Source: a plasmid
Reading direction: 5' to 3' (one strand)
NCBI RefSeq assembly: GCF_056746865.1
Contig: NZ_JBWKMP010000005.1
Length of the DNA: 64,000 bases
Shown: piece by piece, positions 1 to 15,000 of the stretch
Position numbering within the stretch: the first letter of the stretch is position 1
How the letters are laid out: each line of letters starts with the position of its first letter
Program-made: the position numbers

Positions 1-3000
1 GTGCAGCTTGCTGTGATTAGCAAACGTCACTGGTCTGAACTATCACCGGAAGAGCAGGTCCGTTTCTGGCAGGACTACGAAGCGGGTATTGAAAGCTCAT
101 TCCTGGTCCTCCAGGAAAACAAAGGCGGAACAACAAAACGTCGCCGGGGTGAACATTCCACTAAGCCAAAGTGTGAGAATCCAGCCTGGTTCCGTCCCGA
201 CAACTATAAGGCGCTGGGCGGACAGTTGGGCCACGCTTACAATCGTCTCGTTAAAAAAGACCCGGTCACTGGTCAGAACACACTCAGAATGCACATGTCG
301 TTGCATCCATTTTATGTACTGAAACGTCAGAGTGTCGGTCGCAAATATAAATTCCGACCGGAAAAACAGCGGCTGCTTGACGCAATATGGGTTGTACTTG
401 TGAGTTTTTGTGATCGTGGATTGCACACTGTCGGCATGTCTGTCTCCCGCCTGGCAGAAGAAATAAGCCCAAAAGACAGTAAGGGAGACGTGATTCCTGA
501 AACCGCAGTCACAGTATCGCGCCTTTCCCGTCTGCTGGCAGAGCAGGTTTCCTTTGGCACGTTGGGAACGTCAGAAAAGACGATATGGGATCGTGAATCC
601 CGCCAGCGACTGCCGAAATACGTCTGGATCACCGAAACTGGCTGGAAAATGCTGGGAGTTGATCTGGTGAAACTTCAGGAACAGCAACGTAAGCGCCTTG
701 CAGAAAGTGAAATCCGTCTGCAATTGATTAAAGAAAGCGTTATCCGCGAGGGCGAAGAAATCTCTGTTCACTCGGCTCGTAAACGCTGGTATGCGCAGCG
801 TTCTCTCGATGCCATCAAGTCCCGACGTAAGAAAGCAGCGGAGCGCAAACGTGCTAATCGCCTGGCAAAACTGCCGTATGATGAACAGCGAAACGAAATT
901 GCGCGGTTTATTCTGAAGCGTATGCCGCCGGACGAAGCGTACTGGTGCACTAAAGAAAGATTAGAGCAACTGGTAGCCAGAGATCTACGTCAGCTTGAAC
1001 TGGCTCTGACAGCTTCGCCACCCCACTAGTTTAGCTGCCTGATACAATCGGCACTCTCTTCAGCCCCTTCGGGGCTTTTCGTGTTGCCTGCATTTCATGA
1101 AATTCCTCATATTTGACGACCGTTTTTCATTTTGTCCCGCTCTGACAGTTTTTTGATGGCCGCAATAGGGTATCGGAGTAAAAACGCCTTCGGTTATCCA
1201 CAAAAACCCGCAAAGGAATAACTTCAGAAAGCAGCAAACATAGAACATCAAACCCGCAATATATTCTTAACCCTTGTTCTTTAATCCCCTGCGTTGCTTC
1301 GCCGCAGGGAAAATATTTATCTTTGAAACAACTGTGGATAATCAAAAAAATGCCTTCGCTTGCAGCGGCTAACGCCGCGCCGCTCAGAATATAAAAGTAC
1401 CTCCCACCGCTTCGCGGCGGGCATATGGACTTCTGCCTAATGAAAAACAAAGCCCCTCCAACCCTCCTACAAAAAAACGCTGCAAATACTCAGCCACAGC
1501 GCCCAACCCATCACTGAAAAGCGCCGCCGCCCCCGCCCAAAGGGCGGGAACAACATCGCTTTCAATAATGGATGTTGTAACTAAGAAATCTCATCGCTGT
1601 CAGCCTTCTGGCTGGAAGTACCAAATACACGCTCGTAAGCGGCCCTGACGGTCCGCTAACGCGGAGATACGCCCCGACTGCGGGTAAACCCTTGTCGGGA
1701 CCACTCCGACCGCGCACAAAAGCTATTTCATGGCTGAAAGCGGGTATGGCTTAGCAGGATGGGGATGGGTAAGGTGAAACCTATCAATCAGTACCGGCTT
1801 ACGCCGGGCTTCGGCGGTTTAGCTCTGTGCCATATAAAACAACAGAGTGCCGCCTTACATGCCGCTGGCGCGGCATCAAAAAGAAAGCCCCCCAATAACG
1901 GGGGGAAATAGCGTTTTGATCAAAATGATAATGCTAGTGTGCTTCTTGCGTGCCATTCCAGGCACAAACTAAATTTAACGTTTCGTTAACTACAAAGAAA
2001 TCCGATGAGTTAATCACTTGCGAAATAAAAATCATATAGTAAATTACTATATGATTTTGCGTTGTTTCGGAGAATTAAAAAATGCCTTTGATTGAATACA
2101 TCAACAAGTTCTATCGGGGGAATCAGGCATCGTTCGCCAGGCTGACCGGAGTTCAACCTGCGCAGGTCACACAGTGGATCAACAAAGGATTCATCGTGGT
2201 GAATCACACACTGTATAGTCCACGCCGAAAGCTGGGAATTTAATTCCTGGTCAATATTTGACATCCTCCACGCCCTAAAGGACGTGGATTCCTACGACGT
2301 TCAGGCTGTCGCCTGAATCATTTCGGTGGGTTCCTGCTTCAACGGGCGGCCTGACTGCACCATCCCTCCACAGGCAAGTACGGCGTGCCCCGCCGCTAAA
2401 ATGTTACGAGCGCCGTTTACATCGGCGTTCGCTGTATATCCACATGCCTGACACACGAATTTACTTTGTGTCAGGCGGTTTTCTTTCGCTGTATGACCAC
2501 AGCACGCGCAACGCTGGCTTGTGTACGCTGGCGGAACAGCAAGCACCTGACCGCCACGCCAGAGCTGCTTGTACTCAAGCTGGCGGCGCATTTCATACCA
2601 GCCCTGATCCAGTATCGAACGGTTTAAACCTGATTTTGCCCGGACATTCCGCCCCGGCTGGCTGACCGTTCCCGCCGCTGACCTGGACATGTTGCTGACC
2701 TTCAAATCCTCAATGACTATCATTGCGTGGTTTTTGCTGACGGTCGTTGTGACTTTGTGAAGGTAGTCTCTGCGGATATTTGCGATACGGGAATGCAGTT
2801 GCTGTATTTTGCGTTTCTGCTTCTGCCAGTTGTTGCTGAATCTGACCTTGCGGCTTAACTGTCGCTGAAGTCTCGCCAGCGTCTTCTGGTTTTTCTGAAA
2901 ACTGTTTACAGGATCAAAAATAGTGCCATCTGACAGCGTGGCGAGTTTAGCCACGCCAGCATCCAGCCCGACCATTGATACTGAAGGGTGAACCGGAGTT

Positions 3001-12000: not shown

Positions 12001-15000
12001 CAGCTCTGGTGTGGCGGTCAGGTGCTTGCTGTTCCGCCAGCGTACACAAGCCAGCGTTGCGCGTGCTGTGGTCATACAGCGAAAGAAAATCGCCTGTCAC
12101 AAAGTCAATTCAGATGCCAGGTATGTGGATATACAGCGAACGCCGATGTAAACGGCGCTCGTAACATTTTAGCGGCGGGGCACGCCGTTCTTGCCTGTGG
12201 AGGGATGGTGCAGTCAGGCCGCCCGTTGAAGCAGGAACCCACCGAAATGATTCAGGCGACAGCCTGAACGTAGCAGGAATCCACGTCCTTCAGGGCGTGG
12301 AGGATGTCAAATAATTGCGATTTTGCCTGGTGTGTTGTTGCGCCCGTAGCTCGCTGACGCTCACACGCGCAGTACAGCGCCCCGCCCTGCTGCAATGCAC
12401 CAGGACGGCGTGAACTCGCTGGCGCTCGCGCTAACTGCGGCATTCTGCGGCGCAAATCAGCATGATCATAGCCTGTTGGTCTGTTCTGGCTTTGCAGGGC
12501 GAAGGGATGGCCCTGTGCATCCTGGTATGTTCGTCAGCGGCTGCGCCGCGCTTCGGGGCGATGTGGCCCCGCTGCTCCCTGGTATTTTCTTTCGCCCCTT
12601 CTATCCGCTGGCGCGGATAAAAAAATGAGCAAACCATCAAATAACTTGCTGTTTTCAGGCAACAAATCTTGATAATACATCTAAATAGATGTATTATTGT
12701 TTCATCGAAAGGGGATTGGCTCCTTTCCTTCTTAAGTCCAAACGGACAGGAGATTTAAAATGAAATTCACTTCAACCACGAATCATGTTTTCACATTCGA
12801 ACGAGTAACGCTTTGCACGATTGTTCTTATTCATAAGGATACGGGACAACAGTATGTTGTCATATTTACGGATAACAATAAAATTCGTGACTATAAGACC
12901 GGAATTGTTTCTCAGTTTGGTGAACTTAAGCAGAGTGATATTGATTTAATTCTTTTCTATCGGGACGAATATGAAAAATATTTTGACTCGTTAAATAATG
13001 GCGAGGAGTATTTGAGTTTTAAAGAATATATCGGATGTATAAGGGGAAAATAAATTATGAAAGGTGTGATCAGGTTGCTGGAACAACCTGATCACGTTAT
13101 CGACAATCAAAACTGAATGAGGTTTTTAAATGTCAACGCGGCAGATCGTACAGCTTGCTGACTCCCTTGTCAAAGGCTGGGAAACCAGAATTCCGGCAAT
13201 GACGTGCACGGAGTGGGATCAATTCCGGTGGTGGTTAAACTACCTGCAAGGGTATGAAATGTTTTAAATAACCGGGATAAATTCATATATGGGGAGAGTG
13301 TCATGCTCTCCCTTTCTTATTGTGTAAGCGAGTTGTATTACATATTTAGCTTTACGTTGTAAAGATTTTATTCGTTGTCTTTACAGTGTGGTGTGTTTTC
13401 CGGCGGTTGCGCTGCGCTTAGGGGTATGTGGCTTCGCTGCTCCCTGGTATTTTCTTTCACCCTCCTATTTGTCCGATGACTTTTGACAACAACGCTATTT
13501 GTAACTATAATTAGTTGCATGTTGGCAAGGGATGGGATTATAGCGTATGGGGAAAGCAGATAAGCTACTGGCAAAATTTTTAAACAGTAAAAAAACGTTT
13601 GAATGGGATGAACTCGTTGTTTTGTTTTCTTCTCTAGGATATGTCAAAAAGGAAATGCAGGGATCAAGAGTGCGATTTTTCAATGCTGAAATTAATCACA
13701 CAATATTAATGCATCGCCCACATCCAGAAAGTTATATTAAAGGTGGAACGCTGAAAGCTATTAAACAGAACTTGAAAGAGGCTGGGGTTTTATGAAACAT
13801 TTAAAATATAAAGGATATTTAGGTACGGTTGAGCCGGATTTTGAAAATAATATCCTGTATGGAAAGCTGGCATTTATTCGTGATCTGGTGACTTATGAGG
13901 CAGAAACATTGGCTGACCTGGAACGGGAATTTAAAACATCGGTTGATTTGTATTTACAGTCCTGTGTGGAGGACGGAAAGGAGCCTGACACGCCCTTTAA
14001 AGGTGTGTTTAACGTCAGGCTTGATCCAGAGCTGCATCGTCGGGTCGCTGAAATGGCGATGGAAGAAGATTTGTCGCTGAATGCCTTTGTCAATAAGGCA
14101 CTGGAAAAAGAAGTCAGTCATCATCGCGCAGGGGCTTAATCGCCCCTTTTTGTTGCTCGCAGGCGTTGATGTTTCTTGGTATTACGGTGTAGTGTGTTGT
14201 ATTTACAAACAATGCTTTACGGTGTATTACGATGCATACTCTTTAATTGCTTGCAATCTCTTTTCACGTTCGTTGCTTTGTTCAGCTTTTTTCAATTCAC
14301 TGAATATGTACTCTTCATCTTTACCCGTGAGTTTTGAACCGGAGAGCAAGCGATTAACAACTTTACGTCGAATTGCAGGGTAATCTTTGGTTTTATCGAG
14401 TATGGACAATATGCGGTCACTACTAAGAATCTGGCCTTTCCCTGATTCCACATAATGTAGAAAAAATGCGATTGCGGACACGCCCAAAAGCACTGTAAGG
14501 ACGGCTACACCATCAAGACGAAACTTTGATATAAAGGAATACGCGACCACTCCAATAATTGCTAAGCAGAGACATAAATAAATTAAGAGGTTTTTGTTGC
14601 GTTGTTTTTTTTGTGCGCGATCATGATCATCTATGATTGCCAGTATCTTTTCTGGAGTTGCTTGAGCCATTTTTTTTCCTTATCAGGGAGACGGAGTGTT
14701 CAATCATCTGGCTTTACAATGTAAAGCTGTGTTTGTCTTTACGGTGTAAATAATGAGATGTGCAGTTAAAAGTGTCAATCAGGTATCATATAGTAAAACA
14801 CTATATGATTTTTCTGTAATAGGCTTAAAAAATTCTCGCTTACATTGTAAAGGTCTTTGTGTCTTTACAGTGCACCACGTTGTAAATCACTGCCTTCTGT
14901 GGAGATAATCATGTTTTTTTCTGTTGGTGTCGAAACACCGAAAGATGATCAGACTGCATACGGCATCACTGTTCCGGCTTTTGATTGTTTTGGTTTTGGA

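Follow-up and report, generated by a model that had tools for sequence, protein, structure and literature searches.

IS608 of Helicobacter pylori is the structural and mechanistic reference of its family, and it carries tnpA and tnpB as co-oriented, overlapping genes. This element reportedly uses TTAC with an AAAG guide at its left end and TCAA with a GAAT guide at its right end. A second point of reference is ISDra2, whose TnpB is an RNA-guided nuclease that depends on a target-adjacent motif (TTGAT). A third is the Escherichia coli element IS609, a chromosomal combination of tnpA and insQ/tnpB.

Here we describe three elements in a 64-kb window, by which we mean the whole stretch of plasmid DNA that was analysed. 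The plasmid is a conjugative IncI2 type with repA at positions 1-1029. Left ends occur three times in the window, as do right ends, where the chance expectation is none. In our account, to which we assign a probability of about 0.9, all three elements are ordinary IS609-like insertion sequences of the IS200/IS605 family. Copies 2 and 3 are identical, recent and autonomous elements that inserted independently, while copy 1 is older, non-autonomous and carries only tnpB. The kind of element is already known, and the plasmid group is well sampled. A published passage places an element between repA and mok/hok in the same plasmid family, and the anatomy of that element is not given in that paper. 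The copy 1 region has matches in three plasmids of the same paper (KU761326, KX505142 and MG946761), each with a TnpB gene at this place. IS683 of pHNSHP45, also mentioned in that paper, is an IS66-family element unrelated to the IS609-like elements of the window.

Two identical elements with divergent tnpA and tnpB

The two complete elements comprise the following features.

5849-7596, plus strand: copy 2, 1748 nt, tnpA and tnpB divergently oriented; it begins with CCAGTG (left end) and closes with TCAA (right end)
5906-6322, minus strand: tnpA of copy 2, 138 aa, Y1 HUH transposase (NF033573 transpos_IS200, 6e-43)
6345-7553, plus strand: tnpB of copy 2, 402 aa (NF040570, 7.9e-117)
10563-12310, plus strand: copy 3, 1748 nt, identical to copy 2 and in direct orientation
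10620-11036, minus strand: tnpA of copy 3
11059-12267, plus strand: tnpB of copy 3

The initial annotation described copies 2 and 3 as identical, directly oriented elements that each follow TTAC, and the alignment agrees. A perfect identity run of 1753 nt (5845-7597 versus 10559-12311, offset 4714) takes in the TTAC target and one common A located 3' of the element. All three elements had been correctly recognized, with ends (5849-7597 for copy 2, 10562-12311 for copy 3 and 2257-3592 for copy 1) that were off by 1 nt. Copies 2 and 3 have subterminal imperfect hairpins at the left (CCCCGTCC-TTCA-GGTCGGGG) and right (CCACGTCC-TTCA-GGGCGTGG) ends, both in the same orientation, and terminal inverted repeats are absent. 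The exact IS is found in only 5 of 72,556 PLSDB plasmids.

TnpA is present in copies 2 and 3 and missing from copy 1. The HUH motif (HVH) and catalytic Tyr of the copy 2 protein align with those of IS608 TnpA (PDB 2a6m, 2vhg), and the overall similarity is distant (E ~5e-21, 126 aligned residues). Copies 2 and 3 are identical to IS608 in their cleavage and guide tetranucleotides and likewise lack a target duplication, but their tnpA and tnpB genes are divergent and separated by 22 nt, whereas those of IS608 are co-oriented. The TnpB ORF is full-length in all three copies. Copy 2 TnpB aligns with ISDra2 TnpB (PDB 8bf8, 8exa, 8h1j) over residues 3-376, with the RuvC Asp-Glu-Asp triad and the zinc-finger cysteines kept.

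IS609 matches copies 2 and 3 in length (1747-1748 nt), divergent gene layout, hairpins and TCAA right end. Strict assignment to IS609 takes the same target and a nucleotide identity of at least ~95% with the reference. Chromosomal copies, some of them annotated as IS609 by RefSeq, are 94-95% identical in nucleotide sequence to copies 2 and 3, which differ from IS609 in having AAAG rather than AAAA, TTAC rather than TTAT, and a right-end guide of GAAT rather than GGAT. In addition, tnpA is usually a pseudogene in the inspected chromosomal IS609 copies, whereas it is intact in copies 2 and 3.

An older element that carries only tnpB

2258-3593, minus strand: copy 1, 1336 nt; the order on its own strand is left end, 25-nt linker, tnpB, right end
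2301-3509, minus strand: tnpB of copy 1, 402 aa (NF040570 guided_TnpB, 3.4e-115), catalytic residues kept
3594-3597, minus strand: target of copy 1, TTAT, 5' of the left end and paired with AAAA just 5' of the left-end hairpin

The alignment of copy 1 with copy 2 covers the left end (~65 nt), all of tnpB and the right end, and the place of tnpA is taken by an unrelated 25-nt linker, which also distinguishes copy 1 from IS609. The two TnpB proteins are identical at 377/402 aa (94%), close to the ~95% proposed earlier for an element without tnpA. The hairpins, which had been called the same in copy 1, are similar, the left-end stems differing by 2 nt and the right-end loops by 1 nt. Comparison of the two tnpB genes gives a dN/dS of 0.16, which indicates purifying selection.

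A TTAT target and an AAAA guide are common to copy 1 and chromosomal IS609 copies. We considered and rejected the idea that copies 2 and 3 gave rise to copy 1 by deletion of tnpA; copy 1 is of the TTAT/AAAA subtype that is typical of chromosomal IS609. Copy 1 is an older, non-autonomous, tnpB-only element of this subtype; it is common in IncI2 plasmids and plausibly needs TnpA in trans. Its uninterrupted site, GCATTAT^ATATTGACC, is found in pMTY1887_IncI (L044), and CP063496 has copy 1 alone. Contiguous left ends of this type (at least 99% identity) occur in only 21 E. coli records. Those elements whose flanks were inspected all lie at one IncI2 site (L004); among these copies, no full-length element at a second site and no sign of movement were seen.

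Target sites in paralogous regions

5845-5848, plus strand: target of copy 2, TTAC; uninterrupted site GTATGTTAC^AGGGTAAC in L004 and L005
10559-10562, plus strand: target of copy 3, TTAC; uninterrupted site GCGACTTTAC^ATAATTGCG in L004
5722-5844, no strand assigned: palindrome cluster, arms TACAGTGTAAAG / CTTTACATTGTA, the left flank of copy 2, upstream of parA
10466-10558: paralogous palindrome cluster that flanks copy 3
7614-8062, plus strand: conserved non-coding module, the right flank of copy 2
12316-12765 and 8518-8795: paralogues of the module, with a fragment at 13421-13462

Comparison with related IncI2 plasmids places the insertions exactly at TTAC^A for copies 2 and 3 and at TTAT^A for copy 1, with no target duplication. 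At sites 1-3 and in two additional events, among them the pLP50-1-87kb site, comparison of the occupied with the uninterrupted form shows an exact empty site, again with no duplication. Site 2 is uninterrupted in ~485 PLSDB plasmids, and 294 PLSDB plasmids match site 3 with an identity of at least 99%.

Copies 2 and 3 had been proposed to occupy equivalent positions in paralogous regions. The paralogy of the flanks is borne out, with a palindrome cluster to the left and a module of ~450 nt to the right that is 96-97% identical between the two regions. The insertion positions are near-equivalent rather than exactly equivalent, lying 13 nt apart in the paralogue alignment: opposite the site 2 TTAC, paralogue 3 has TAAC, and opposite the site 3 TTAC, paralogue 2 has TTTC. 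Both landing sites lie in non-coding DNA, between the palindrome cluster and the hairpin-forming module of each region.

The position of the palindrome cluster upstream of a small ParA gene points to a possible operator or centromere. As single-stranded DNA, the module folds into a long imperfect hairpin (z = -2.9 on the minus strand), and a plus-strand ORF lies directly downstream of each module copy; the module may serve as a single-strand promoter or in initiation. The five TTAC-type events seen in IncI2 backbones are all oriented like repA, and this common orientation is at most suggestive of strand-specific transposition via single-stranded DNA.

Natural loss of the intervening cargo

7597-10562, plus strand: cargo between copies 2 and 3, 2966 nt, with five ORFs including one for a J-domain protein at 8790-9305
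12866-12869, plus strand: additional TTAC, unoccupied in the window and a deletion endpoint in pEC1266-mcr

As identical direct copies, elements 2 and 3 could support homologous recombination, by which the 3-kb cargo would be lost. Such a deletion had been predicted, and its expected products exist: pHLJ109-16 and pEC1266-mcr each carry one IS and lack the cargo. The sole IS of pHLJ109-16 is identical in sequence and is bounded on its left by the flank from site 2 and on its right by that from site 3. Mobilization of the cargo, which had been predicted as well, found no support. A composite transposon would be recognized by the same IS-flanked cargo at more than one location, and the IS-cargo-IS block (6.5 kb) was found only in its native IncI2 position.

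The one-IS plasmids could instead have arisen by a TnpA-catalysed adjacent deletion, in which a TTAC further downstream would be linked straight to the copy 2 right end, with loss of the strand in between. Both deletion endpoints lie directly 3' of a same-strand TTAC (site 3 in pHLJ109-16 and 12866-12869 in pEC1266-mcr), as this route would have it, and a plasmid with an IS at 12869 was not seen. However, the two-copy substrates for recombination occur in the window, in AP018355 and in AP027794, which are independent sequences, and a perfect direct repeat of 1748 nt is an efficient substrate for RecA. The sequence of pHLJ109-16 is compatible with both routes because they yield the same product. 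On balance we regard adjacent deletion as unlikely, though worth keeping in mind, and favour recombination between copies 2 and 3.

Independent insertion of copies 2 and 3

The paralogue alignment separates the two TTACs by 13 nt, and one plasmid, pCUVET25-1155.2, has copy 3 only; copies 2 and 3 are therefore independent transpositions. Both copies are present in AP018355 and AP027794. The initial annotation had named segmental duplication as the explanation to be set against independent insertion, and the uninterrupted sites, the non-homologous TTACs and the copy-3-only plasmid all speak against duplication. From that single plasmid we infer that site 3 was probably hit first, and that a copy then entered site 2. 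Precise excision of copy 2 or inter-plasmid recombination would explain the copy-3-only plasmid equally well.

A second copy might also be produced by a TnpB cut and subsequent homology-directed copying from one paralogous region to the other, rather than by TnpA. Such homing is a described role of TnpB, and flank homology exists, but the guides predicted for copies 2 and 3 are different, and each fails to match the site of the other copy. Moreover, the sequence immediately beside each copy is the one that this site has when uninterrupted, a conversion tract with site-3-type flank is absent next to copy 2, and the junctions fall at different positions of the paralogue alignment. We consider homing very improbable.

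Segmental duplication of an IS-bearing block would account for the paralogous surroundings, with palindromes to the left and the 96-97% identical module to the right of both copies. Identity nevertheless breaks off precisely at the TTAC to the left and at the TCAA with one further A to the right, beyond which the flanks are only 82-97% alike. The 13-nt offset between insertion points and the plasmid with copy 3 only also oppose it, and hundreds of plasmids have both paralogous regions with no IS, such that the comparison of uninterrupted sites already refutes duplication and leaves it barely credible. Finally, identical 1.7-kb repeats are a classic source of misassembly, but the chance of an artefact is negligible given that each junction has its own unique flank and that the same two-copy arrangement and junctions recur in two independently assembled complete plasmids (AP018355 and AP027794).

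Covariation of guide and target tetranucleotides

The tetranucleotide located 5' of the left-end hairpin is AAAG where the flank is TTAC and AAAA where the flank is TTAT. Among the E. coli loci, AAAG/TTAC is found at 4 independent sites and AAAA/TTAT at 6. The rule is kept at 10/10 independent sites from 12 E. coli and window loci, a count in which two loci have one site in common and from which L010, whose guide segment is rearranged, was left out. In loci of other species the rule holds in 25 of 27 (AAAA/TTAT, 20/21; AAAG/TTAC, 5/6), the exceptions being L027 and L030. At the right end of copies 2 and 3, a GAAT guide accompanies TCAA.

In the mechanism we propose, TnpA (a Y1 HUH enzyme) would move one DNA strand by 'peel and paste', cutting 3' of TTAC on the left and 3' of TCAA on the right. 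Reinsertion would occur 3' of TTAC in single-stranded DNA, without target duplication. Cleavage would be set by the DNA of the element itself, such that AAAG located 5' of the left hairpin specifies TTAC and GAAT located 5' of the right hairpin specifies TCAA.

Predicted TnpB guide RNAs

7437-7596, plus strand: predicted omega RNA scaffold, overlapping the tnpB 3' end and the right-end hairpin; its extent is a prediction
2242-2257, minus strand: predicted guide of copy 1, 16 nt, ATATTGACCAGGAATT, from the flank 3' of TCAA; placed by analogy with the TnpB family and unique in the window
7597-7612, plus strand: predicted guide of copy 2, AGGGTAACTTTTCAGG, matching uninterrupted site 2 of related plasmids
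12311-12326, plus strand: predicted guide of copy 3, ATAATTGCGATTTTGC, matching uninterrupted site 3 of related plasmids

Each tnpB would be expected to give rise to an RNA encoded by its 3' end together with the right end, and the final 16 nt of this RNA would come from the flank. As in ISDra2, the predicted scaffold extends across the 3' end of tnpB and the right end, while the predicted target-adjacent motif, TTAC or TTAT, differs from TTGAT. A consensus fold from 7 homologues has 50 pairs, 4 of which show compensatory changes; this covariation is thin because the homologues are mostly >90% identical. The single-sequence fold of the scaffold has a z-score of only -1.8, and no Rfam family was matched at the gathering threshold. 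The last 109 nt of tnpB differ by only 1 nt between copies 1 and 2. Within the window, neither the copy 2 guide nor the copy 3 guide has a second close match.

Family membership leads us to infer RNA production, TnpB cleavage and a TnpB-mediated form of retention. After IS excision, TnpB would cut the restored TTAC (or TTAT) and its flank, and molecules that keep the IS would be favoured.

Discussion

The TnpB and guide pairs would be pre-programmed against uninterrupted sites 2 and 3, and therefore might constitute an inter-plasmid weapon or homing drive. We think it quite doubtful that the TTAC-type variant prefers the TTACs at the foot of the hairpin modules in the IncI2 leading region and serves such a purpose. 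If it did, the system could act when two IncI2 plasmids come together in the same cell.

The IncI2 plasmid group is clinically relevant. Uninterrupted sites 2 and 3 are found in several hundred related IncI2 plasmids, many of which are mcr-1 plasmids.

These findings leave current understanding unchanged. Their main use is a clean annotation, with exact ends, targets and predicted guides for three elements, and with the 3-kb segment flagged as unstable. The split between AAAG/TTAC and AAAA/TTAT offers a natural illustration of the IS608 retargeting rule, which was itself established by experiment. Likewise, the series of plasmids with no IS, one IS, two ISs or a deletion provides a natural record of what would be peel-and-paste insertion followed by IS-mediated gene loss from the leading region.

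Extent and setting of the insertions

Copies 2 and 3, the two tnpA-tnpB elements, lie within a run of perfect identity that extends over 1753 nt (5845-7597 against 10559-12311). Comparison with uninterrupted sites in related IncI2 plasmids assigns the leading TTAC and the final A of this run to the target, so the elements occupy 5849-7596 and 10563-12310 (1748 nt each), starting with CCAGTG and finishing with TCAA. The uninterrupted site 2 reads ...GTGTGTATGTTAC^AGGGTAAC... and the uninterrupted site 3 reads ...GGGCGACTTTAC^ATAATTGCG... (^, insertion point). The initial annotation was right about the identity of the two copies and their TTAC flank, and its element ends are corrected here. 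The flank of copy 1, the tnpB-only element, is TTAT rather than TTAC, because the uninterrupted site kept in pMTY1887_IncI reads ...GCATTAT^ATATTGACC....

Copy 1 and its plasmid setting
1-1029, repA, at the window start
2258-3593, minus strand, copy 1
3604-3775, sok (hok/mok/sok), Rfam match
5056-5721, minus strand, small ParA gene
18507-23158, relaxase operon
within the first 13.5 kb, a ProQ/FinO-like gene and a J-domain protein gene

By database search and typing, the first 13.5 kb has its matches in IncI2 conjugative plasmids from E. coli and Salmonella, and many of these carry mcr-1. No plasmid carrying all three copies was found in the databases; the closest are AP027794 and AP018355, in which copy 1 is missing and copies 2 and 3 are present. 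Plasmids named in the literature on IncI2 (KU761326, KX505142, MG946761) match copy 1. One IncI2 plasmid is described as having no dnaJ between parA and traL (PMC8386294).

Independent insertion of copies 2 and 3

The surroundings of sites 2 and 3 are paralogous, which raises the question of whether one copy arose by duplication of the other. In the alignment of the paralogues, the TTAC of site 2 stands opposite TAAC, and the TTAC of site 3 lies 13 nt further along, opposite TTTC, such that each paralogue has TTAC only at the position of its own element. Related plasmids supply a series of states: CP063496 has copy 1 only, pCUVET25-1155.2 has copy 3 only, and AP018355 and AP027794 have copies 2 and 3. 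The offset TTAC sites, the uninterrupted sites and the plasmid with copy 3 alone uphold the proposal of independent insertion rather than duplication. TnpB homing or gene conversion between the paralogues could be imagined as the source of the second copy, but is excluded by sequence comparison: the flanks of each occupied site are those of its own uninterrupted version, and the predicted guides of the two copies differ.

Guide and target sequences

Immediately 5' of their hairpins, copies 2 and 3 carry the tetranucleotides AAAG (left) and GAAT (right), paired with a TTAC flank on the left and a TCAA terminus on the right. IS608 reportedly uses AAAG/TTAC on the left and GAAT/TCAA on the right, exactly the same set of cleavage and guide sequences. 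AAAA is combined with a TTAT flank in copy 1 and in five IS609 elements inserted independently in chromosomes; AAAG is combined with TTAC in two more insertions resembling copy 2, both on plasmids. A scan with the left-end core, using one genome per species and accepting either base at the variable position, gave 27 loci, among which AAAA was paired with TTAT in 20 of 21 and AAAG with TTAC in five of six. Given this pairing, copies 2 and 3 represent a variant with TTAC specificity of an insertion sequence that otherwise targets TTAT, and we assign copy 1 to the TTAT type.

In the left end at L010 (CP095127) and in a mini element at L001, a locus in a related plasmid, TTATAT stands in place of GTAAAG, the guide segment on the 5' side of the left hairpin, and pairs with ATATAAGGCGC across the hairpin to give a perfect extended palindrome. 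This looks like an intrastrand template switch, which would abolish target recognition.

Copy 1 and mini elements

When copy 1 is aligned with copy 2, the two match at both ends and across tnpB, and 25 nt of unrelated sequence replaces the 480-nt tnpA segment. The unrelated linker, the other guide/target subtype and 6% divergence rule out a simple tnpA deletion from copies 2 and 3. An identification as IS683 was also dropped, as the IS683 of pHNSHP45 is an IS66-family element.

The left end of copy 1 lies in the hok/mok/sok control region (3594-3775), and the sok match begins 10 nt away. Among IncI2 plasmids, the repA-mok interval is a patchwork holding copy 1, IS66/IS683, IS91 or a mini element together with a 185-nt segment, which suggests an insertion-tolerant hot spot. 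Plasmids that seemingly lack copy 1 retain a remnant hairpin, about 46 nt long, at exactly the same right-end junction (L001, 1229-1275; the same sequence at five other loci). This remnant combines the 5' portion of the left end, a single hybrid hairpin and the 3' portion of the right end, and it finishes in TCAA. Nine genomes from other Enterobacterales contain equivalent mini elements of 45-46 nt with TTAT or TTAC flanks. They look like solo hairpins from recombination between left and right hairpins, or miniature mobile derivatives.

Loss of the cargo

Deletion of the segment between copies 2 and 3 through these direct repeats had been predicted, and pHLJ109-16 is the expected product: its single element, identical in sequence, is bordered on the left as at site 2 and on the right as at site 3, and the 2966-nt cargo is missing. 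In pEC1266-mcr, the element is at site 2 and its right end is joined to position 12870, immediately 3' of another TTAC (12866-12869). Homologous recombination between direct copies is favoured for pHLJ109-16, since two-copy substrates exist; for pEC1266-mcr it needs a third insertion, and none was observed. Alternatively, TnpA could have joined the right end to a TTAC further downstream. The two routes cannot be separated from sequences alone.

Proteins and predicted guide RNA

The 402-aa ORFs match the guided_TnpB model (1e-115 or better), and alignment with ISDra2 TnpB structures shows that they retain the RuvC Asp, Glu and Asp residues and the CxxC...CxxC zinc finger. Between copies 1 and 2, TnpB identity is 94% and dN/dS is 0.16. 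On the minus strand, the 138-aa ORF encodes a TnpA of IS200 type (6e-43) whose HUH motif and catalytic tyrosine line up with those of IS608 TnpA.

If it resembles those of ISDra2 and related TnpBs, the RNA scaffold would overlap the 3' end of tnpB together with the right end and extend through 16 nt of flank, giving the predicted guides AGGGTAACTTTTCAGG (copy 2), ATAATTGCGATTTTGC (copy 3) and ATATTGACCAGGAATT (copy 1). A consensus fold of seven homologues has 50 pairs, including the right-end hairpin, four of them with compensatory changes; the single-sequence fold z-score is weak (-1.8). Across the whole window, Rfam models at their gathering threshold matched sok alone and no TnpB guide-RNA family. 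The last 109 nt of tnpB differ at one position between copies 1 and 2, and among 12 homologues, divergent Serratia and Erwinia sequences included, the 3' end of tnpB has no clear excess of conservation. Searching the window for second targets of the three predicted guides with up to three mismatches returned chance-level matches only, and so gives no evidence there for self-targeting or cross-targeting between sites.

Site choice and neighbouring non-coding DNA

Sites 2 and 3 both fall narrowly outside a conserved module, about 450 nt long, which forms a long imperfect hairpin when either strand is folded as single-stranded DNA.

Repeated non-coding elements near the insertions
7614-8062, 8518-8795, 12316-12765 and 13421-13462, copies of the conserved module (three to four repeats)
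5722-5844, 10466-10513, 14701-14748, 14827-14874 and 15246-15293, inverted repeats with 12-nt arms (TACAGTGTAAAG / CTTTACATTGTA) about 10 nt apart

Each module copy is directly upstream of a plus-strand ORF, and the copies lie on that side of the relaxase operon which would be first into the recipient. Sequences in plasmids of about 33 kb share about 83% identity with the module. In form it is like the single-strand promoters described for leading regions (PMC11541004); no link to a published Frpo/ssi sequence emerged, and we consider it a candidate single-strand promoter or initiation element. The insertion tolerance of non-coding DNA may be enough to explain why sites 2 and 3 lie beside it. 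Annotations of related plasmids place a HicA/HicB toxin-antitoxin pair (13547-14139) downstream of the last module fragment.

The largest inverted-repeat cluster adjoins the start of the small ParA gene, and these repeats are probably an operator or centromere for a plasmid DNA-binding protein. Their arms contain TTAC, yet the element uses other sites.

All five placed TTAC-type events in IncI2 backbones (sites 2 and 3, the 12869 endpoint, and the pLP50-1-87kb and pMTY1887 sites) are oriented in the same direction as repA. The family reportedly targets the lagging-strand template, and a shared orientation would be expected if replication runs rightwards from an origin beside repA, although five events are only suggestive.

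At L045, the P1-like phage-plasmid pLH50-c-C (CP100503) has at least three tnpA-tnpB elements of the IS200/IS605 family. Two are closely related to copy 2, and one element interrupts a large helicase-related gene. It is possible that this phage-plasmid is a vehicle carrying TTAC-type elements between replicons.

Uninterrupted site 2 is present in about 485 PLSDB plasmids, site 3 is matched at 99% identity or more in 294, and the exact element of copies 2 and 3 occurs in five. The predictions of the initial annotation are largely borne out by database relatives, and the finding is a correct and ordinary one: three insertion sequences of known type on a heavily sequenced plasmid family, with the insertions of copies 2 and 3 being recent and limited to one lineage.
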